The notes under the pieces are model-generated. The model had not been told where the DNA came from, did not search any database, and saw nothing but the letters and a program-made list of their open reading frames with translations. From Minisyncoccia bacterium (GTDB lineage Bacteria; Patescibacteriota; Minisyncoccia; Phycocordibacterales; Phycocordibacteraceae): a DNA stretch of 46,495 bases. The stretch is from NCBI GenBank assembly GCA_049298935.1, contig JBAQWN010000002.1, forward strand, positions 1 to 46,495, in the 5' to 3' direction. The position numbers were made by a program, and so were the translations under genes. Positions 7,692-42,686 of this stretch are shown piece after piece; position 1 is the stretch's first letter, and each line of letters opens with the position of its first letter.

Positions 7692-8096
7692 ATGGAACAA
7701 GACGCAACACTGAAGAAATCATTTTCAAAATACATTACCGTTACAAACGTTCTGGCGGTGCTTCTTGTAATCTCTATTGGTACAGGTGTGTACTTCTATC
7801 AGAAGGCGACTGCTGATCCACAGAAGGAGGCGCTTAAGGAGTTGCAGGCTACGATTGTGAGTGTCGGCAAGCTGATGGTCCTACCAGCCGGCGAGACGCC
7901 GACGATGGCGACCGTGAGTGACCCAGAGAAGTTAAAAGACCAACCGTTCTTTATTCATGCCCAAAAGGGAGATAAGGTTTTGATATACACAGCATCACAA
8001 AAAGCGATTCTCTACAGCCCCTCATTGAATAAAATAGTAGAAGTAGCCCCGATCAATGCCGGCGCTACCGGAGGCTCAGCCAATGTCCCACTTTAG
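7692..8096 (+). CDS. Hypothetical membrane-anchored protein (single N-terminal TM)
   Basis: 134-aa ORF with TM segment VTNVLAVLLVISIGTGVYFY. TGGTATACT -10-like box at 7652-7660. No family recognised. Confidence 0.55.
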   Translation: MEQDATLKKSFSKYITVTNVLAVLLVISIGTGVYFYQKATADPQKEALKELQATIVSVGKLMVLPAGETPTMATVSDPEKLKDQPFFIHAQKGDKVLIYTASQKAILYSPSLNKIVEVAPINAGATGGSANVPL

Positions 8097-11000
8097 AAAA
8101 GCCGTTTTACTCAGTGTCCTTGTAGCAGGTCTTTTACCACTCTTTCCATCTCGCGCAGAGGCGGTTGTTTTGGACAAAAGTTCGTATATTGTCGGAGACT
8201 CAATCATTGCTCCTGATGGTACTGGCCCGGTTGTGCTTTATAATCTCGGTACTGGAGAAACATATTTTGAAACATGGGGATTTGATCCGGGTGGAAATAT
8301 TAATTATTTCGGAATTTCATCTGGTAATTTTTCCCTTATCGAACTTACCACTTCGGGGATATGTCAGGGGCAAGCGTTGACGTATGTTGACTGCAAGTTA
8401 GCTCCGGAGTTCGTAGGTGAAGCTTTGTTTAGTGTCACCGATCCTCCTTCTAGCGGCAGGGCGGCTGAGCCAGCAGACAGAATTGTGCCGGTGCCGATCG
8501 CGGCTATTCAGTCGCCACTGAGAGGCGATGTGTTCTCACTCTTTGGGATTATTAACTACACCACGCTGAGCGCAACAAAAGTTAATCTCTATTATTCCAC
8601 CAGTACGGCTAACTGGGACGGCAGTTTCTTTATTGATCCTGCCGATAAGATGTTGATCGCGAGTGGTGTGCCAGAAAATGGTCCGTATACATGGAATACA
8701 AAAGGTCTTGCCCCAGGGAACTTCTATCGATTTATCGTTGATGCTCTGGGGACCTATGGTCGTATGGGGGAAGCGATTTCCGGCTTCTTCTCACTCGACT
8801 TCACTCCGCCGACCTTTATTGTGAAGGCGAACCCGCCCGTGACGCGCGGTAGCGACGTCACGGTGAGTGTCGATGCATCGAAGAATTTGAAAGTACCTCC
8901 GACGGTGACCGTAACTCAGGCGAGTGGTGTGGCCACGTCTCTTGAGATGAAAGGGCAGGGCAGTCATTACGAAGGAACGTATGTTATCAGCAAAGGGCAT
9001 GACGGCGTTGCGACGATCTCAGTGTCGGGTAGTGACGTGGCAGGAAATGTCGGGACGACGATACTCTCTGGCGGCACATTTGCGGTCGGTATTAACCCTC
9101 CACCTGTCCCGCATATTTCGTCGCCACAAAATAATACAGTGGTCGCGACTAGCACAATCGCAGTCACGGGTACGGTGCGTCCAGACACCATGGCGGTACT
9201 TGTGGTGAATGGTGTTGATACCTATACCGCGAGCTCGAGTTTGGACGGCACCTTTCATATTTCGGGCATCGTGTTGAGTAAAGATGCAAATAGGGGAGCG
9301 AACGTCTTTAGTATCGCGGCACGTGACCAGGCAGGGCTCATGAGCGAGGCGGTGCCGTTACAAATTAAATATAATATCGCACCGACCGTCGCCATTTCTT
9401 CTCCGGCAGACAAAGCGATCGTGGGCGCAACAACACTGCTTACGGTACAAGCAAAAGATGAAAATACCGACCCTCTCTTGTTTACCTATCAAATAATTCC
9501 AGCACAAAGTTTTGACGAGGCATCAGCCGCAACCACCTCATCAAGCACTGTCAAACACTCGGTGTTTGACAGTGCTTGGAATACTATCGGAGACGCGGTG
9601 CCGTCTGCGAATTTTTCATGGGACTCGACTGAGGTTGAGGATGGGCAATATTTCTTACGTGCCATAGCAGACGATGGTTTTGTGAAGGTGTATTCGACAC
9701 CAACTCCATTTTCAATCCACAACACCATTTCGTTCTTCCGTTTTGAAGATGGTAGAAAGACGGTGACGAATCGGTTGTCCGCGACTATCGTCGGACACGC
9801 CCTTTCACCGGTTACGATCTCACCGCGCCCGGCGATTGTCTCTGTCGAATATAGCCTCAATAATGGTGTGAAGTGGAGCCCAGTTTCAATAACGTCTGGA
9901 GAAGGCAGTGCTAACGTGACATTCTCACTCGCCCTCACGAAGCTTGCTGAAGGAACACAAAATATCGTGTGGCGGGTTAAAGATAGTCGAGGTCTCTACG
10001 GTCGCGCGAGTCATCCGGTCATTGTCGATCTGACACCACCCGCCGTGCCAATAGTGAATAGTCCTGCGAATAATGCCTTTATCACAAATGCAGATGATGA
10101 AGACGCTTCACAAAGCGGATTGCAGATAAGTGTTACGGGAACGGCAGAGCCGCAGAGTATGGTCACGTTGCAGTCAGCGAGTACGACCCTGACAGCGCGG
10201 GCATCTATAGATGGTGTGTTTACGTTCCGTGCTGTTGATATGCAGCGTGGGACAAATCAGTTCACGGTAACTGCAAAAGACGAGGCGGGGAACGCGAGTG
10301 TGTCGCGGATAGTGCGTGTCGTATATGACAATCCTCCGACGGTGACTATTCTCACGCCGAAGCCGTTCCGTGGGCTCACGGGGAAAGCGAGTGTCTCATG
10401 GAGTGTAAGTGATATCGACGGTGACAAGATACAGCAGGTTAGACTCGAATATCGTCGCGGCTCAGGAGCGTTCATCCCTCTCGACCTTGTCAAACACTCG
10501 GTGTTGGACACCCCGCACATTTTTGATGTGAGGGATTTTCCCGAAGCGGCTGATTATCAACTGCGACTCTCGGCAGGTGACGGTATAGCGACGGGCACGG
10601 ATCTGGTGAGTTTTTCGGTCGATCGAACTCCACCAACCCTTTCTTCTTTTACTCTCGACACGTCGGTGGTTGGGAAGGGTGGTACGCTCACCGGACATGG
10701 CAAAGCGTATGACGCACTCTCGGGTATTGAATATGTCGAATACGCAATTGCTGAGGGTGCGCCGTCGACATTCTCCACCGCGCTCCTCACGAATGGTTTC
10801 TTGCAGAATAACGCCACATTTTCGCTCGCTCATCCGACAACGCTCATAGACAGTACCTATACTGTGTATGCTCGCGCGGTCGATGCCGCTGGGAATGTAT
10901 CGCCCCAAGCGTCGCGCACTGTCCTCGTCGATATGGCACCACCATCAATCGGCAGTTTCGACGTGCTTGTGCAGGGTGCGCGTGTCAGTCCAGACGAACA

Positions 11001-11343
11001 GGGCGTGATCGCACTTTATACGGGCGCACAATCATTGTTTGAAGTATCGCTTGAAGGAGATACGAAAACAGCATCGCTCTTTGTTGGTAGTACAGCTATC
11101 CCATTGAAGAAAGATATCGCTTCAGGATTGTGGCAGGTAGCGATTGACGTAGGTACTGCAGGAACGACAACACTAGCTATCAGTGCCGAAGACAATGTGC
11201 ACAATGCCGTCACGGGGAAACTCATTGGAGCGTTACATATCACTGATCGCCCGAGTGATGCGCCAGCACAGCCTTCGACAGGTGGAACAAGTGGTGTGTG
11301 GAAGTTTCTACAAGGTATTATCAATTATATCCTCTCGCTATGA
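8083..11343 (+). CDS. Large secreted Ig-like-domain repeat protein (1,086 aa)
   Basis: Start chosen at ATG 8083 because GGAGG (8070-8074) lies 8 nt upstream and the product then begins with a signal peptide (MSHFRKAVLLSVLVAGLLPLFPSRAEA). Domain-boundary motifs D-x-[TA]PP recur (DFTPPTF, DLTPPAVP, DRTPPTL, DMAPPSI), as do D-x-AGN motifs (DVAGNVG, DEAGNAS, DAAGNVS), both typical of bacterial Ig-like arrays. Confidence 0.75.
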   Translation: MSHFRKAVLLSVLVAGLLPLFPSRAEAVVLDKSSYIVGDSIIAPDGTGPVVLYNLGTGETYFETWGFDPGGNINYFGISSGNFSLIELTTSGICQGQALTYVDCKLAPEFVGEALFSVTDPPSSGRAAEPADRIVPVPIAAIQSPLRGDVFSLFGIINYTTLSATKVNLYYSTSTANWDGSFFIDPADKMLIASGVPENGPYTWNTKGLAPGNFYRFIVDALGTYGRMGEAISGFFSLDFTPPTFIVKANPPVTRGSDVTVSVDASKNLKVPPTVTVTQASGVATSLEMKGQGSHYEGTYVISKGHDGVATISVSGSDVAGNVGTTILSGGTFAVGINPPPVPHISSPQNNTVVATSTIAVTGTVRPDTMAVLVVNGVDTYTASSSLDGTFHISGIVLSKDANRGANVFSIAARDQAGLMSEAVPLQIKYNIAPTVAISSPADKAIVGATTLLTVQAKDENTDPLLFTYQIIPAQSFDEASAATTSSSTVKHSVFDSAWNTIGDAVPSANFSWDSTEVEDGQYFLRAIADDGFVKVYSTPTPFSIHNTISFFRFEDGRKTVTNRLSATIVGHALSPVTISPRPAIVSVEYSLNNGVKWSPVSITSGEGSANVTFSLALTKLAEGTQNIVWRVKDSRGLYGRASHPVIVDLTPPAVPIVNSPANNAFITNADDEDASQSGLQISVTGTAEPQSMVTLQSASTTLTARASIDGVFTFRAVDMQRGTNQFTVTAKDEAGNASVSRIVRVVYDNPPTVTILTPKPFRGLTGKASVSWSVSDIDGDKIQQVRLEYRRGSGAFIPLDLVKHSVLDTPHIFDVRDFPEAADYQLRLSAGDGIATGTDLVSFSVDRTPPTLSSFTLDTSVVGKGGTLTGHGKAYDALSGIEYVEYAIAEGAPSTFSTALLTNGFLQNNATFSLAHPTTLIDSTYTVYARAVDAAGNVSPQASRTVLVDMAPPSIGSFDVLVQGARVSPDEQGVIALYTGAQSLFEVSLEGDTKTASLFVGSTAIPLKKDIASGLWQVAIDVGTAGTTTLAISAEDNVHNAVTGKLIGALHITDRPSDAPAQPSTGGTSGVWKFLQGIINYILSL

Positions 11344-11891: not shown

Positions 11892-11909
11892 ACCCTAGTC
11901 ACTTTGTGG

Positions 11910-11942
11910 ATGTCACTTGGCGGTGAAACCGCCAAGTGACAT
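11910..11942 (+). repeat. Palindromic element copy 1 (upstream flank)
   Basis: ATGTCACTTGGCGG-TGAAA-CCGCCAAGTGACAT: perfect 14-bp stem with a 5-nt loop. Core CTTGGCGGTGAAACCGCCAAG at 11916-11936. Confidence 0.95.
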
Positions 11943-11944
11943 TG

Positions 11945-11953
11945 TGATAGGAT
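11945..11953 (+). promoter_or_regulatory. Extended -10-like box TGATAGGAT, 7 nt upstream of ATG 11961
   Basis: It lies 2 nt after hairpin copy 1, so the hairpin covers the -35 region. No SD is present. Confidence 0.4.
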
Positions 11954-11960
11954 AGTAATA

Positions 11961-12623
11961 ATGAGTACGAGGAAAACGGTTTTTGCGAATGGAGAATTTT
12001 ATCACGTGTACAATCGTGGGGTTGATAAGAGAATTATTTTTTCCGACAATTACGACGCGCAAAGGTTCTTCAAGAGTATGGTTGAATTCAACACGGCCAA
12101 TCCGATCGGGAGCCTGTACGAGAATTCATTTCATCAATTTGGCGGTGAAACCGCCAAGTCAGAAAAGAGGTTAGTTAATATCATTGCGTACTGTCTTAAC
12201 GTAAATCATTTTCACATCATCTTGGAGCAATTGATTGATGGCGGTATTAGTGAGTTTATGAAAAGAATCGGAGGGTACACATGGTACTTCAATAATAAAT
12301 ATAAAAGGAGCGGGTCTTTGTTTCAGGGGGCATTTAGAGATGTTCATATTGATTCGAACGAGTATCTTCTTCATGTAAGTGCATATGTAAATTTAAATGA
12401 CCGTGTTCATCAACTTGGCGGTGAAACCGCCAAGTTGATCGCGAATATGTCGAGCTGGGAAGAGTATACGGACAATGGGCTTAAGGGAATTTGCAAAAAG
12501 GAAATTATTTTAGGACAATTTAAAAATATTGATGAGTACAAAGAGTATGCACTCTCGTCGCTGGAATCAATTATAAAAAGAAAAGAAGATTTGAAAGATC
12601 TCGATAAGTTTCTACTCGAGTAG
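11961..12623 (+). CDS. HUH-Y1 transposase-like protein (IS200/IS605 TnpA / REP-associated tyrosine transposase family)
   Basis: N-terminal FYHVYNRG. HUH motif NHFHIIL (H83, H85). KRSGSLFQGAFR block. Tyr region SAYVNLN (Y142), corresponding to the YIHLNP of COG1943-type proteins. Confidence 0.75.
   Translation: MSTRKTVFANGEFYHVYNRGVDKRIIFSDNYDAQRFFKSMVEFNTANPIGSLYENSFHQFGGETAKSEKRLVNIIAYCLNVNHFHIILEQLIDGGISEFMKRIGGYTWYFNNKYKRSGSLFQGAFRDVHIDSNEYLLHVSAYVNLNDRVHQLGGETAKLIANMSSWEEYTDNGLKGICKKEIILGQFKNIDEYKEYALSSLESIIKRKEDLKDLDKFLLE
12137..12159 (+). repeat. Palindromic element copy 2 (inside the transposase CDS, in frame)
   Basis: TTTGGCGGTGAAACCGCCAAG at 12138-12158. Perfect 7-bp stem, plus one G-U wobble and one A-T pair, with loop TGAAA. 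Translated as F-GGETAK-S (aa 60-67). Confidence 0.95.
12409..12439 (+). repeat. Palindromic element copy 3 (inside the transposase CDS, in frame)
   Basis: ATCAACTTGGCGG-TGAAA-CCGCCAAGTTGAT: perfect 13-bp stem. Core at 12414-12434. Translated as L-GGETAK-L (aa 152-159). Confidence 0.95.
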
Positions 12624-12651
12624 TCACTTGGCGGTGAAACCGCCAAGTGAT
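12623..12651 (+). repeat. Palindromic element copy 4 (downstream flank, starts in the stop codon)
   Basis: TCACTTGGCGG-TGAAA-CCGCCAAGTGA: perfect 11-bp stem (12624-12650) plus a G-T wobble. Core at 12627-12647. The TAG stop is at 12621-12623. Confidence 0.95.
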
Positions 12652-12701
12652 GAGGGTGGACGTGCTGTGCATAATGTCACTAACATAGCGTGGTGAGGGG
12701 C

Positions 12702-12707
12702 TATAAT
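12702..12707 (+). promoter_or_regulatory. -10-like TATAAT, 11 nt upstream of ATG 12719
   Basis: Consensus hexamer in the 95-nt intergenic region. No SD between it and the ATG. Confidence 0.4.
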
Positions 12708-12718
12708 GAACGAACAGC

Positions 12719-14212
12719 ATGTCACTCTATTTCTTTGCAAATAATATCCACTTCGCGCTCGCACTTCTTGGTGCTGTTGTGATGTTTATGGCGGCATGGC
12801 TCACCTTCGACACCTACTCAGTGAGCAAGGAGACGAGAATACTCTTCCGAACGCTTGGCTTTGCGCTCTTCGCTTTGTGGCAGATTATCATAGCGGTCGC
12901 TAGCGGGAACGACGTGCTGTCATTTGTCGGATTCTCCATTCTTATCATCGGGCTCTTGTGCCTGCTTGGGAGTTTCTTTGGTGGCGAACAGCTTGCGATG
13001 CCCGCAGTTCTTATTATTCCGTCATTCGCGACCTTCGCTCCCGCGCTCTCTGCGGTCGAGGCATTTCTCCTTATCGCCATTGCTCTTGTTGCGTATCGAC
13101 TCTCAAAAAGGGAGTTCAATAAGACGTGGAAGTCGTTCTATGTCGCCTTCGCTCTCCTCGGCATAAGCCAAATCTTTTTAATAGGCGCGCACGGAGATAG
13201 TGCAAGTCTCTTCGCTCTCGCGAGCGAGGCGCTCTCGCTCGCGGGATTCCTCTACCTCTTTGCCTGGGTGTGGCAGTTTCTTGCACTACGCATCCGTGAA
13301 AGCTTGGTAATTATTTTTATCTCGGCGGCAATCTTCCTTTCGACGGTTGTGACGCTCGCGTTTTCAACTATTCTTATCGCGCAGATAACGAGTCAGACAC
13401 AGACAAGTCTCCTGACCGACGCGCGCGTGCTTGATCTCGATATTCAGGCATTGAAGCAAGCATCACTTGTTGAAGCAACTCTCCTTGCGATGGATCCACA
13501 GCTCATGAGTGCTCTCGCCACAAATGATTTCAAAACACTCCAAGCAAAAACAGAAAGTTTTATGGAGAAATATAATCTCGGCTTCGTTACCGTTACCGAT
13601 GCGCAAGGCACCGTGCTTATCCGCGCGCATGCACTCTCACAGCGCGGCGACTCTCTTGTGGGAGAGCGAGCCTTTGAAGAGGCTCGGGCGGGTGTGGCCT
13701 TTGTCACGATAGAGGAGAGTCCGGTAGAGAAACTCTCTATCCGCGCCGGTGCGCCGGTAGAGCAGAAAGGGAAGGTTATAGGCACAGTCGTCGCTGGCTA
13801 CCCGCTCGACAACGCTCTTGTTGACGGCATCAAGCGCGTGACGGGTCTCGATATGTTTATCTACCAAGGTGCAGTGTCGGTCGCCGCAACAGCCTTTGCG
13901 CGCGACGGGAGCACTCGACTTACCGGCTTGCCACTTCAGGACTCTGCAACCGAGCAGTCGGTGTTGGTTGGTGGAGAGAGCGTTACGACTCACGTGAGCA
14001 TCAGAGAACAATCGTTCCTCTCGAGCTATCTGCCGCTCACAAATGGCGACGGTAAGATTGTCGGTATGCTGTCGGCGGCGAAGCCCGAGCAGGATATTCT
14101 CGATCTCGTAAATGCTACCAACCAGCTCACGCTCATAACGATTATTATCGTTATGCTCGTGTTGACCTTCCCGATCTATATCTTCGCGAAGCGACTGACC
14201 GATGAGGCATAA
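12719..14212 (+). CDS. Multi-TM membrane protein with an extracytoplasmic Cache/PDC-like sensor region and no output domain
   Basis: About 7 hydrophobic helices in aa 1-225. Then a ~235-aa soluble alpha/beta region, one terminal TM (LTLITIIIVMLVLTFPIYIF) and a stop 9 aa later. The Cache assignment is by architecture only. Confidence 0.55.
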   Translation: MSLYFFANNIHFALALLGAVVMFMAAWLTFDTYSVSKETRILFRTLGFALFALWQIIIAVASGNDVLSFVGFSILIIGLLCLLGSFFGGEQLAMPAVLIIPSFATFAPALSAVEAFLLIAIALVAYRLSKREFNKTWKSFYVAFALLGISQIFLIGAHGDSASLFALASEALSLAGFLYLFAWVWQFLALRIRESLVIIFISAAIFLSTVVTLAFSTILIAQITSQTQTSLLTDARVLDLDIQALKQASLVEATLLAMDPQLMSALATNDFKTLQAKTESFMEKYNLGFVTVTDAQGTVLIRAHALSQRGDSLVGERAFEEARAGVAFVTIEESPVEKLSIRAGAPVEQKGKVIGTVVAGYPLDNALVDGIKRVTGLDMFIYQGAVSVAATAFARDGSTRLTGLPLQDSATEQSVLVGGESVTTHVSIREQSFLSSYLPLTNGDGKIVGMLSAAKPEQDILDLVNATNQLTLITIIIVMLVLTFPIYIFAKRLTDEA

Positions 14213-18221: not shown

Positions 18222-19904
18222 ATGGTTCGACAGCTTCTCGAGCGTATCGCGGCACCCGTACGCGGCCTGCATCAGGCCGCGTACTTACTCGCGGGCCTCA
18301 CACTCGCGTCGCAGGCGCTCGCTCTCTTGCGGGACCGTACCTTCGCTCACACCTTTGGTGCTGGGCAGACGCTTGATATTTATTATGCTGCGTTTCGCGT
18401 GCCTGATCTCGTTTTCGCTCTCGTCTCATCACTCGTGAGTGCCTATGTTATTATCCCGCGCATTGCCGGGATGAGCAGAGAAGAGACCCAGAGACTGCTT
18501 TCTGAGTCAGCGACATTCCTCTTCGGTGTTGGCGGGTTTATTTGCATTATTCTCGGCATTTTCATGCCGCAGTTCTTGACGTTTTTGTATCCGAGCCTCA
18601 TGGCGTCGTCGCAACAGTCTGCCTTTGTTTTTCTTGCGCGCATCTTGCTTGTCCAACCAATCTTGCTCGGACTCTCGGGTGTTATCGGGAGTGTTGCACA
18701 GGTGCATCGGCGATTTACCCTCTTCGCGCTCTCTCCGGTGCTCTACAATCTCGGTATCATTATTGGTGCCATCGTTCTCTATCCTCTTTGGGGTTTGCCG
18801 GGAATCGGTGTCGGCGTTGTTATCGGTGCCGTCGCCTACCTCTCAGTGCATATTCCCGTCGTGATGCAGGCGGGAGTTATGCCACACGTGCGCTTCCCGA
18901 CATTTTCGCTCATGTACTCGGTCATGCGTGATTCAGTGCCACGCTCGCTTGCGCTCAGTGTCAATTCGATCATGTTGCTTGTCTTGACTGCGATGGCGGC
19001 GCGCATAGGTACCGGAGGCGTTTCTGTTTTTAGTTTTGCGAGTAATCTCGAGGCAGTGCCACTCGCTCTTATTGGCTCGTCCTATGCTATTGCGGCATTC
19101 CCCGCACTTTCTGAAGCGTTTGCGAAAAAAGATAAAGAAGAATTCATGAAGATTCTTTCAGCAAGCGCGCGACATATTATCCTTTGGTCGATCGTTGCTT
19201 TCGGTCTTATTGTGGTCTTGCGTGCACATATTGTGCGCGTCATCCTCGGGTCCGGCGCTTTTGATTGGAATGCGACGCGCCTTACGGCGGCCCTTCTTGC
19301 CGTCCTTGCGCTCGGTCTTGTTGTCGATTCTCTCAAACTACTCTTCTCACGAGCGCTCTATGCCGCACAACAATCGTGGCGACCGCTTTTATATCAATTG
19401 GCTGGGGCTGCTCTTACGATTGCTCTCGCGCTCGCTTTCCTCGCTTTGCCAGGTGCGGGTATTCCCTCGTCGCTCGCTTCTCTTTTAAGAGTCACCGATG
19501 TTGTGGGGGCAGACGTACTTCTTCTCGCGCTTGCGTATGTCATAGGTCAATTTTTTCTCGTCTTCCTTTCTCTAATCGCACTTCGCACTATTGTACCTGG
19601 GCTCAGTCGCACGCTCGTGCGACCAGTCTTCGATGGTGGTTTTGCCGCGTTCGCTGGTGGTGTGGCGGCGTACGGTATTCTCGTTATTGCGGGTGGCATC
19701 GCTTCTCTCACGACGCTCGCCGCCGTCTTCACGCAAGGGTTCGTCGCTGGCGTGGTAGGTCTTGCTGTTTCGGGTCTGGTACTTTTCTTTGTTGAAAATG
19801 AAGAGTTCCTTATTGTCGCACAAGCACTTTCGAGATTGATGCATCTCCCGATGCATCGAGCATCGGAACTCGTCTCGCCGATAGAAGACCCAACACGCTC
19901 ATGA
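18222..19904 (+). CDS. murJ: Lipid II flippase MurJ (MviN family)
   Basis: 560 aa, polytopic throughout. N-terminal LALLRDRTFAHTFGAGQTLDIYYAAFRVPD matches the MurJ signature region. Confidence 0.8.
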   Translation: MVRQLLERIAAPVRGLHQAAYLLAGLTLASQALALLRDRTFAHTFGAGQTLDIYYAAFRVPDLVFALVSSLVSAYVIIPRIAGMSREETQRLLSESATFLFGVGGFICIILGIFMPQFLTFLYPSLMASSQQSAFVFLARILLVQPILLGLSGVIGSVAQVHRRFTLFALSPVLYNLGIIIGAIVLYPLWGLPGIGVGVVIGAVAYLSVHIPVVMQAGVMPHVRFPTFSLMYSVMRDSVPRSLALSVNSIMLLVLTAMAARIGTGGVSVFSFASNLEAVPLALIGSSYAIAAFPALSEAFAKKDKEEFMKILSASARHIILWSIVAFGLIVVLRAHIVRVILGSGAFDWNATRLTAALLAVLALGLVVDSLKLLFSRALYAAQQSWRPLLYQLAGAALTIALALAFLALPGAGIPSSLASLLRVTDVVGADVLLLALAYVIGQFFLVFLSLIALRTIVPGLSRTLVRPVFDGGFAAFAGGVAAYGILVIAGGIASLTTLAAVFTQGFVAGVVGLAVSGLVLFFVENEEFLIVAQALSRLMHLPMHRASELVSPIEDPTRS

Positions 19905-22164: not shown

Positions 22165-22235
22165 GCGGGTATGGTTTAGTGGTAGAACGCGACCTTCCCA
22201 AGGTTGAGTCCCGGGTTCGATTCCCGGTACCCGCA
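22165..22235 (+). tRNA. tRNA-Gly (anticodon CCC), CCA not encoded
   Basis: Manual cloverleaf. Perfect 7-bp acceptor stem (GCGGGTA/TACCCGC), 4-bp D stem, and a 5-bp anticodon stem with loop TTCCCAA. The variable loop is 4 nt. The T stem CCGGG/CCCGG is perfect, with T loop TTCGATT; the discriminator is A. Confidence 0.9.
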
Positions 22236-35786: not shown

Positions 35787-35802
35787 ATCTAGTTCATAGA
35801 AA

Positions 35803-35838
35803 GAAAAAACCCGCGGCACAAGTGCCGCGGGTTTTTTC
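35803..35838. terminator. Bidirectional intrinsic terminator between rpmA and the convergent rplI operon
   Basis: GAAAAAA-CCCGCGGCAC-AA-GTGCCGCGGG-TTTTTT: a 10-bp GC-rich stem flanked by an A-run and a T-run. Confidence 0.85.
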
Positions 35839-35851
35839 TTTCTCGTGTGGA

Positions 35852-38283: not shown

Positions 38284-39201
38284 ATGATATTTCGACATAA
38301 ATATCGCGGCGGCGTATGGGTTGACCTTGAGCATCCGACTGAAGAGGATGTGCGCAGTGTGACAAAAGAGTTTTCGATTGGTGAACGTCTTGAGGCTGAA
38401 TTGTTCTCGCCTACACTAGAGCCTCTCGTCGCGAGCGACGCTGGGGTGATATTTCTGGTCATTCACTTCCCAGCTAATGGCACGACGGATGGTGAGATGC
38501 GAGATCAAGAAATCGATTTGCTTGTCGGCGAGGGCTTTATCATCACAGTGCGTTATGAAGTCGTCGCGCCTTTGCACCGCTTGCAGAAACTTCTTGCGGC
38601 GCATCAGCTTATCTCGCCGCACGATGGTATTACGACCGACGCTCTTCTTGAGATACTTTTTGCTCACCTCTACACGTCTGTACGTGACCACATACACACG
38701 ATTGCAGATCGGCTCACCAGCGTCGAGCGAGACATGTTCAATGGTCTCGAGCACACCACCGTGCGTGCAATCTCGAATATCAGCCGAGAGTTCTTGCATA
38801 TCGAGGCGTCTCTCGCGAATCAGGGTGGGCCGCTCGAACATTTTATGAAAGCGCTCTCGTCAAAAGATTTTCTTGAAAAATCTTTTGACGATCGTTCTGT
38901 TCGTATTCTCGCAGAGCGTACCCAGGCAGTCAGGCTCGCGACGACCTATCGAGCCGTCGCGACAGAATTGCGCGAGACAAACGCGTCATTGCTCGAGGCG
39001 CGTCAAAATGAGATTATGAAGACACTTACGGTCGTTACGTTCATCTTCCTTCCGCTCGAGCTCATCACGTTTGTGTTTGGTATGCATGCACTCGGGACCC
39101 CCCTTGAGCAGAATCCGAATGCGTTTTGGATTATTGCAGCACTCATGTTTATTGTAGGTATTGGCATGACGCTTTACTTGAATCTTCGCCGCTGGCTCTA
39201 G
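38284..39201 (+). CDS. corA: CorA-family divalent cation transporter with GMH in place of the GMN motif
   Basis: A ~250-aa cytoplasmic domain, then two C-terminal TMs. LTVVTFIFLPLELITFVFGMHALGTP aligns with the CorA ..FLPLTFIAGIYGMNF.. block. Confidence 0.75.
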   Translation: MIFRHKYRGGVWVDLEHPTEEDVRSVTKEFSIGERLEAELFSPTLEPLVASDAGVIFLVIHFPANGTTDGEMRDQEIDLLVGEGFIITVRYEVVAPLHRLQKLLAAHQLISPHDGITTDALLEILFAHLYTSVRDHIHTIADRLTSVERDMFNGLEHTTVRAISNISREFLHIEASLANQGGPLEHFMKALSSKDFLEKSFDDRSVRILAERTQAVRLATTYRAVATELRETNASLLEARQNEIMKTLTVVTFIFLPLELITFVFGMHALGTPLEQNPNAFWIIAALMFIVGIGMTLYLNLRRWL

Positions 39202-42655: not shown

Positions 42656-42686
42656 ATAAAAAGCGCCCTCAACGGGCGCTTTTTAA
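42656..42686. terminator. Bidirectional intrinsic terminator between recR and the convergent helicase gene
   Basis: AAAAAGCGCCC-TCAAC-GGGCGCTTTTT, with the stem flanked by A-run and T-run. Confidence 0.85.

Follow-up and report, generated by a model that had tools for sequence, protein, structure and literature searches.

A probable resident RAYT-type gene of Patescibacteria, bracketed and interrupted by its putative cognate hairpin

The contig of 46,495 bp that was analysed here over its whole length (the window) belongs to a metagenome-assembled genome (MAG) of Minisyncoccia (Patescibacteria, or candidate phyla radiation, CPR) and contains one copy of a gene for a 220-amino-acid (aa) HUH-Y1 protein that is both bracketed and interrupted by a short perfect hairpin. 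Probably, this is a resident gene of the type of the REP-associated tyrosine transposases (RAYT, also TnpA_REP; REP, repetitive extragenic palindrome) with cognate hairpins of its own, and not a mobile insertion sequence (IS). A preliminary description of this DNA had seen a minimal unit bracketed by hairpins and had left the choice between a mobile IS and a domesticated RAYT undecided. The two flanking copies were indeed found, two further copies inside the gene had been missed, and synteny, correlated divergence and the dispersal of the hairpin on its own all point to the RAYT-like side of this alternative and away from an IS.

Hairpins around and inside the gene

Four copies of the 20-nucleotide (nt) core TTGGCGGTGAAACCGCCAAG are present in the window, all on the + strand, where shuffled sequences lead one to expect 0.00 copies. 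One copy lies upstream of the open reading frame (ORF), two (i1 and i2) lie inside it and one follows the stop codon (table 1). Both intragenic cores encode (F/L)GGETAK, with GGETAK common to the two, and the predicted folds are very stable (-17 to -34 kcal/mol). The recognition unit can be written here as a symmetric 23-nt hairpin, A-CTTGGCGGT-GAA-ACCGCCAAG-T. For the upstream hairpin, our 15-bp stem with a 3-nt loop is the same structure as the 14 bp with a 5-nt loop described before; the 12-bp stem and 3-nt loop downstream likewise equal the earlier 11 bp and 5 nt, but this hairpin starts after the TAG and not inside it, since G12623 faces T12651 and no pair forms there. The arm-only remnant in front of the upstream hairpin matches the right end as had been reported, and arms of this type have five matches in the window at two or fewer mismatches, with 0.15 expected. 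Arm-only duplications also adjoin hairpins in other loci of the family (L078, L076, L067, L141, L152, L198). Rfam, searched at gathering thresholds, found only a tRNA in the window (22165-22235) and nothing at the hairpins.

Table 1. Positions of the gene, its catalytic motifs, its promoter box and its hairpins in the window.
Feature	Position	Strand	Details
Partial duplicate of the hairpin (5' arm only), TAGTCACTTTGTGG	11896-11909	+	12/14 match to 12621-12634
Upstream hairpin	11910-11942	+	15-bp perfect stem, loop GAA; 21-nt core 11916-11936; covers the -35 position
Extended -10 box, TGATAGGAT	11945-11953	+	2 nt past the upstream hairpin, 7 nt before ATG
RAYT-like HUH-Y1 ORF, 220 aa	11961-12623	+	motifs YHVYNRG, NHFHIIL, SAYVNLN
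Internal hairpin i1	12138-12158	+	8-bp perfect stem, loop GAA; 20-nt core 12139-12158; in frame, FGGETAK, aa 60-66
HUH motif H83-F-H85	12207-12215	+	within the ORF
Catalytic Tyr Y142 (in SAYVNLN)	12384-12386	+	within the ORF
Internal hairpin i2	12409-12439	+	14-bp perfect stem, loop GAA; 20-nt core 12415-12434; in frame, HQLGGETAKLI, aa 150-160
Downstream hairpin	12624-12650	+	12-bp perfect stem, loop GAA; directly after the TAG stop (12621-12623); no T-run

This arrangement recurs throughout a family of related genes, 86 distinct members of which were gathered by exact-protein look-ups, a search of genomes for the hairpin and a search of metagenomes for the protein; a site was counted as a hairpin if at least 8 of 9 positions in a 9+3+9 frame formed Watson-Crick pairs. 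The hairpin occupies fixed sites, i.e. upstream of the -10 box, in one or two variable loops of the protein and past the stop codon. All four sites are filled in 26 of the 86 genes, upstream, i2 and downstream sites in 12, and upstream, i1 and downstream sites in nine, with most of the other genes showing partial combinations; i1 is occupied only in a subset of the family. In loci with a palindromic i2, the upstream site is filled in 47 of 49 cases and the downstream site in 39 of 48, against a background rate for such hairpins of 1.8% per random 50-nt window.

What is conserved at these sites is the structure. The outer CTTGG/CCAAG is almost constant, while the inner 4 bp and the 3-nt loop vary by genome, giving 40 distinct palindromic i2 21-mers and i2 peptides as different as LGGETAK, LGSSTSK, LGDQVAK, LGHSMSK, LGCGAPK, LGNRVSK and CGGSTAT, with a palindrome that stays perfect. 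In 55 i2 hairpins, both partners have changed at 12 of the 15 pairs and G-U pairs are rare. Since this set was picked for at least 8 of 9 paired positions, the percentage of paired positions is inflated, but the double changes are not: double-change cells number 104, compared with 37 +/- 5 in shuffles, none of 500 of which reached the observed value, and the covariation score is 0.355, compared with 0.155 after shuffling and at most 0.112 with the pairing partner slid. Compensatory changes override the encoded peptide, and the structure of the hairpin is selected at the nucleotide level.

Enzyme and hairpin are paired, in that the core is specific to the genome and common to the copies at one locus: the central 15 nt, orientation ignored, are identical in 75% of pairs within loci and in 1.9% between loci. 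In a single MAG, GCA_009694825.1, which may be a mixed bin, two divergent paralogs have different cores, P0019 with CTTAGCGGY-GAG-ACCGCTAAG at four sites and P0169 with CTTGGAAGC-GAA-GCTTCCAAG at three. This pairing within loci lends support to the earlier suggestion that the hairpins are likely cognate sites of the enzyme. The same orientation of the flanking hairpins, which had also been pointed out, holds for the window, but across the family about 40% of them are flipped (upstream 20/47 loci, downstream 15/39). In 137 oriented copies, the only conserved positions outside the hairpin are -1 (A) and +1 (T), which makes the unit a symmetric 23-mer without a GTAG-like guide. The palindromes also reach into copy-specific flanks, with at least two extra pairs in 59% of cases where 6% are expected.

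The upstream copy is located at a promoter. Of 73 loci, 61 have an extended -10 box, TGnTAnnnT, between hairpin and ATG. It is immediately next to the 21-mer core in 41 loci, is 7-9 nt off in the subclade of the window and ends 0-10 nt before the ATG. With such a short distance between -10 box and ATG, a leaderless mRNA is probable, and the hairpin would take the place of the -35 element. The -10-like sequence 2 nt past the left hairpin was found as described before, and the previously proposed overlap of this hairpin with the -35 region is backed by the conserved spacing. A generic sigma-70 -35/-10 scan did not flag this promoter, which is without a -35, so that the promoter call is founded on the conserved extended -10 box. 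At the other end, the downstream core begins 2-4 nt past the stop codon, most often 3, and the stop codon itself varies between TAA, TAG and TGA. A terminator scan gave no terminator-like site at the downstream hairpin, and no T-run follows it either here or in the family. The window sequence GAG-TAG-TCAC had offered a candidate for the GTAG head of a REP, which was rejected because the motif is lost across the family and stop codons vary. Further downstream, a promoter-like CTAACA-16-TATAAT (12680-12707) ends 11 nt before the ATG (12719) of a gene for a dCache sensor; here, too, the spacing implies a very short leader or none.

The protein and its inheritance

The window protein is a divergent HUH-Y1 protein. 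Its ORF and the three motifs first noted in it were found again, and H83, H85 and Y142 are invariant in alignments of 34 and of 66 family members. The Y1_Tnp profile of Pfam (PF01797), which had been named as a check, gives a borderline result for the window protein itself (22.9 bits, gathering cutoff 23), whereas all of 66 diverse members match at E <= 0.01 (best E 3.7e-9). For each of these 66, REP_Tyr_transpos is the top NCBIfam family, always below its cutoff and without a competing family; the NCBIfam IS200 model matches neither the window protein nor the 66 members. A first AlphaFold2 (AF2) model from 20 similar sequences was of too low confidence for use (pLDDT 44.8), and it was rebuilt with the 66 more diverse sequences (pLDDT 77.3, pTM 0.78). 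It places H83/H85 on the beta strand 84-90 and Y142 on the helix 133-145. The top Foldseek match of this model in the PDB is 4ER8_A (E 1.1e-5, probability 1.0; 14% identity in the structural alignment), the REP-associated tyrosine transposase of E. coli with a bound REP hairpin, followed by 2A6M, 2VJV and 2XM3, i.e. the TnpA folds of IS608 and ISDra2; matches to Y1 HUH proteins fill ranks 2-30. The earlier assignment to HUH-Y1 enzymes is upheld by this fold match and by Y1_Tnp across the family. PADLOC and PHROGs searches gave no match, so that the gene belongs to neither defence systems nor phages.

Only two segments of the protein, both of them surface loops, are variable and rich in indels, its sequence being highly conserved otherwise, and it is in these two that the peptides encoded by i1 and i2 lie. 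The i1 peptide forms the sole internal low-confidence loop of the AF2 model (residues 54-66) and the i2 peptide the tip of a predicted beta-hairpin (residues 148-161). Compared with RAYT of the E. coli type, the family has an extra C-terminal region of about 60 aa. The annotation deposited at NCBI is a product of 181 aa (82% of the ORF) that is 100% identical to the window protein and apparently begins at an internal Met, so that the conserved N-terminal strand with YHVYNRG is omitted; the 220-aa reading fits the whole family. This family is large, with more than 2,690 matches at 70-80% identity and, in a profile search, at least 6,420 clusters, and every named source of its clusters belongs to the Patescibacteria.

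Comparison of gene neighbourhoods favours a gene that is vertically inherited and resident in Patescibacteria. The order RAYT-like gene-GAPDH-RpiB-Rpe-transketolase is common to eight to nine loci, and other loci share a RecR-DnaB-CysS-CorA context. From one pair of loci to the next, the identity of the RAYT-like protein rises and falls with that of GAPDH (rho 0.68) and of RpiB (rho 0.80), and its mean identity (64.6%) is close to that of GAPDH (66.5%). Synteny, correlated divergence and conservation at the level of GAPDH together argue for a resident gene and not a 0.75-kb IS. Moreover, the same protein was found again in a single genomic context across samples, and tblastn against plasmids and phages returned only distant Y1 transposases with at most 32% identity. 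The gene has a G+C (GC) content of 38.2% in surroundings of 49.9% in the window. A recent horizontal transfer as the cause of this low value was rejected, because the gene is poorer in GC than the flanking DNA in all 55 loci compared (mean -10.8 points) and its GC content tracks that of host and flanks (rho 0.82). Speculatively, AT-rich surroundings could make it easier for the GC-rich hairpins to extrude.

A gene for a giant surface protein with Peptidase_S74, Bact_surface_Ig-like or Laminin_G_3 domains is often the immediate upstream neighbour of the RAYT-like gene (L001-L004, L205, L207). In the window, an Ig-like (Big_13) gene is found upstream (8056-11343), with a gene for an AhpC/TSA-type redoxin between it and the RAYT-like gene.

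Copies of the hairpin in other genes

The hairpin also occurs away from the enzyme gene. A genome scan with a degenerate core yielded at least 117 stretches, and 114 of 117 among the matches listed lie in MAGs of Patescibacteria. The three non-CPR matches (L036 from Mesobacterium, L108 from a Defluviitaleaceae MAG and L124 from a proteobacterial MAG) have G/C and not A/T beside the core and are probably chance or unrelated palindromes. Single MAGs contain at least 10-11 copies on many contigs, again among the matches listed, and one 102-kb contig has at least five dispersed copies besides the four at the gene. In 418 kb of flanks of RAYT-like genes, the locus-specific 21-mer has 11 perfect copies, i.e. 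about one per 38 kb, and compared with its genomic density the hairpin is more than 60-fold enriched at the enzyme gene. The label REP-like given in the preliminary description is therefore apt in so far as a cognate hairpin is dispersed in related genomes, but not as to a GTAG head, which is missing, or an extragenic location of the copies.

Many of these copies are in frame in other genes, namely those for TsaD, a class-V aminotransferase (Aminotran_5), ArgRS, MurC, LeuRS, DnaE and a P-type ATPase. Pfam domain matches run across the inserts, and either orientation is seen among intragenic copies. Inverted doublets are occasionally seen (L037, L043, L065, L079), and the LeuRS copy is itself an in-frame inverted doublet. 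In TsaD, copies from three MAGs share the same position in either orientation, and among 120 close TsaD homologs (P0176-P0295) this one site encodes LGGETAK, LGGETPK, LGGLTSK, LGGFTAK, LGSSTSK, LGHRMSK and others or, in some homologs, harbours arm duplications, other palindrome families or no insert. Such variable inserts suggest fixed hotspots with a turnover of cores that is genome-wide. The TsaD hotspot is a loop between RLAE..R and (Y/F)xLPRPM (same homologs; L016, L111, L009) and also holds nested or tandem elements, TSDVQVSELGHRMSKF, and the other palindrome families GFVNPSSDEGFTKP and SNLNASSQGSTLEFKL.

A second, unrelated palindrome family, GTCAAACAC-TCG-GTGTTTGAC, is present in the window at 9542-9578 (17-bp perfect stem) and 10489-10509, twice in frame in a gene for a 1095-aa Ig-like surface protein, where it encodes VKHSV. 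Exact copies are found in four other CPR loci (L023, L049 with three clustered copies, L101, L121), with no visible partner enzyme. Altogether, the window has 14 perfect hairpins with stems of at least 9 bp, compared with 0.65 expected from shuffles. They include hairpins at 13219-13243, 18258-18284 and 38857-38891 as well as at 35798-35843 and 42657-42685. In-frame hairpins in long ORFs have stems of 10 bp (the dCache sensor gene), 12 bp (a 565-aa ORF) and 15 bp (a 308-aa ORF), and two hairpins of the window with T/A-rich flanks resemble bidirectional terminators.

A proposed mechanism and its rivals

An important question is what enzyme and hairpin may do to each other. The ORF is predicted to encode a catalytically intact HUH-Y1 nuclease/transferase for single-stranded DNA of the RAYT type, and the strong purifying selection on its catalytic residues in at least 6,420 clusters argues for an active enzyme with a substrate. 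This cognate substrate would be the perfect symmetric 23-nt hairpin, whose inner 4 bp and 3-nt loop constitute the genome-specific core. The hairpins would act at the level of DNA: extrusion would yield single-stranded hairpins or cruciforms, to which the enzyme would bind. That they act as DNA is suggested by an upstream copy outside the transcript, the occurrence of both orientations, Watson-Crick pairing and a protein family that acts on single-stranded DNA hairpins. If so, binding to the promoter copy may result in negative autoregulation, and cleavage and rejoining at the hairpins may keep the copies of a genome identical, flip them and occasionally seed new ones. Template switching within the palindromes possibly assists this homogenization and flipping.

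Among known systems, the TnpA_REP REPtrons of E. coli, Stenotrophomonas and Marinomonas (PMC3333891, PMC3479197, PMC8266576) are alike in having an HUH-Y1 enzyme (with 4ER8 as best fold match), a single-copy gene flanked by cognate hairpins, a hairpin that is dispersed (here, in related genomes) and a repeat of its own for each enzyme. A further mark of these enzymes is the specific binding of single-stranded REP DNA and its cleavage at a CT dinucleotide. However, their sequences are very distant, with the NCBIfam RAYT cutoff not reached here. They possess a GTAG guide, which is absent in our case and which, 5' of the hairpin foot, has a role in canonical REP systems (PMC8266576), and E. coli TnpA_REP needs bulges or mismatches where the stem is a perfect 9-15 bp here. 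Their repeats are extragenic, whereas here, at about one per 38 kb, copies lie within coding sequences, in frame in housekeeping genes and at two conserved sites of the enzyme's own gene. Pseudomonas REPIN-RAYT systems (PMC3116915; PMC5581495; bioRxiv 10.1101/2021.07.10.451892) share a single-copy, vertically inherited domesticated transposase with co-evolving short palindromes, paralogs that each have their own repeat family and, in the occasional inverted doublets seen here, one more point of similarity. They differ in that a doublet of two REPs of about 100 bp takes the place of the single symmetric 23-mer, while the populations described here are tiny, with many intragenic copies and with positions conserved between genomes. 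IS200/IS605 elements (IS608 and ISDra2 TnpA) have the Y1 HUH fold and hairpins at both ends of the gene, on the same strand as in the window. In contrast to them, our gene is neither multicopy nor mobile, lacks distinct ends, guide or target sequences, does not conserve the orientation of its ends across the family and encodes 220 aa with extra domains instead of about 130-155 aa. Finally, Rickettsia palindromic elements (PMC10969869) also lie in frame in unrelated housekeeping genes of a host-dependent bacterium with a reduced genome, whose proteins tolerate them in loops. They are about 100-150 bp long with a conserved peptide module, whereas the unit here is six-fold shorter (23 nt, or 7-8 codons), its peptide is not conserved, the hairpins are perfect, a candidate cognate enzyme exists and cores are replaced in concert at fixed sites.

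Several points weigh against a RAYT system with its own cognate hairpins. The window protein scores only 20.6 bits with the NCBIfam RAYT model REP_Tyr_transpos (cutoff 80), and a profile search of PDB sequences gave nothing at E <= 1. Canonical hallmarks of REPs are missing, as there is no 5' GTAG or asymmetric guide and the stem is perfect and unbulged. Copy numbers are low, many copies are intragenic and no copy of the core was found beyond the gene in the remaining 45.7 kb of the window, although at a density of about one per 38 kb this is not surprising. The case for autoregulation at the promoter copy is one of position. The selection of the covariation set and the single, possibly mixed bin behind the paralog pairing also belong here. 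Finally, concerted evolution and loop flips, for which homogenization by the enzyme would account, could arise enzyme-free by quasipalindrome template switching or gene conversion.

That the gene and its flanking hairpins are simply an active minimal IS200/IS605-type element of 0.75 kb, with incidental internal copies, would agree with the protein's membership in the Y1_Tnp superfamily, with flanking hairpins that are identical and in the same orientation on the coding strand in the window, like the ends of IS200/IS605, and with a GC content 11 points under that of the surroundings. This GC offset is family-wide, however, and follows host GC; the gene is present in a single copy in the window and in one context across samples; its synteny, its divergence in step with housekeeping neighbours and its GAPDH-like conservation are those of a resident. 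The flips of flanking hairpins in about 40% of loci are incompatible with the processing of ends on the same strand, no guide or target motif is conserved in the flanks, no NCBIfam IS200 match or close plasmid or phage relative turned up, and copies of the hairpin are dispersed without the gene beside them. We consider the mobile-IS reading largely refuted and its chances very slim. Nor does a role as RNA seem at all likely, in which the hairpins would serve mRNA stability or translation (3'-end protection, RNase III sites, ribosome pausing) and the protein would be irrelevant or an RNA binder. All copies but the upstream one (i.e. i1, i2 and the copy past the stop) would indeed be transcribed, the last of them in the position of a 3' stabilizer, and the folds are of high stability; but the upstream copy precedes the -10 box and is outside the gene's own mRNA, pairing is strictly Watson-Crick with few G-U pairs, and a flip alters the RNA loop while it leaves the same DNA hairpin on the other strand. 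In addition, the downstream hairpin has no T-run, Rfam is silent and the protein family acts on hairpins of single-stranded DNA (PMC3479197, PMC8266576).

An origin of the hairpins independent of the enzyme, either as quasipalindromes formed by template switching and gene conversion or as sites of another host factor, with the link to the gene as a relic of an ancestral IS, is improbable in our view. It is kept because template switching alone could explain arm-only duplications, loop flips (both typical of this process) and the outward extension of the palindromes beyond chance, and the second palindrome family and the many in-frame perfect hairpins of the window have no visible partner gene. 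It leaves aside that genome-specific cores co-vary with the enzyme locus, that two paralogs of one MAG carry different cores, that the hairpin is so strongly enriched at the enzyme gene and that the catalytic residues are conserved throughout this large family. Beyond the RAYT system proposed here, one may think of a self-referential hairpin cassette, i.e. an HUH nuclease that repeatedly excises, flips and replaces the 23-nt hairpin at fixed in-frame sites throughout the genome, an idea that we regard as doubtful but worth stating. If true, the enzyme would have both its expression and its amino-acid sequence tied to the state of the repeat population, loops on the surface of TsaD, aminoacyl-tRNA synthetases, MurC and DnaE would be rewritten together whenever the core changes, and there would be an enzyme-driven, concerted in-frame replacement at the DNA level in essential genes of bacteria with reduced genomes.

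RAYT and REP serve as the standard example of a domesticated transposase whose repeats co-evolve with it. To our knowledge, they have been studied almost only in Proteobacteria, with extragenic repeats and a GTAG guide. A literature search of partial coverage found no account of RAYT/REP or of in-frame palindromes in CPR, nor of REPs within a RAYT gene, and a 2018 survey of the Y1 superfamily does not mention CPR. What is described here is a RAYT/REP-type system with different recognition features and intragenic, self-contained repeats. It extends the RAYT/REP principle to a very large clade of Patescibacteria with at least 6,420 protein clusters and to a different logic of recognition, in which a guide is absent and the hairpin is perfect, symmetric and specific to the genome in its inner core, and it places the repeats inside coding sequences, including conserved positions in the enzyme's own gene. 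With a protein of 220 aa and a substrate of 23 nt, it also provides a compact and testable model of how HUH enzymes read hairpins. For annotators, ‘transposase’ calls of this kind are resident genes, and perfect palindromes in coding sequences of CPR should not be mistaken for assembly artefacts. For the biology of these bacteria, the system accounts for a class of variable insertions in their housekeeping proteins.

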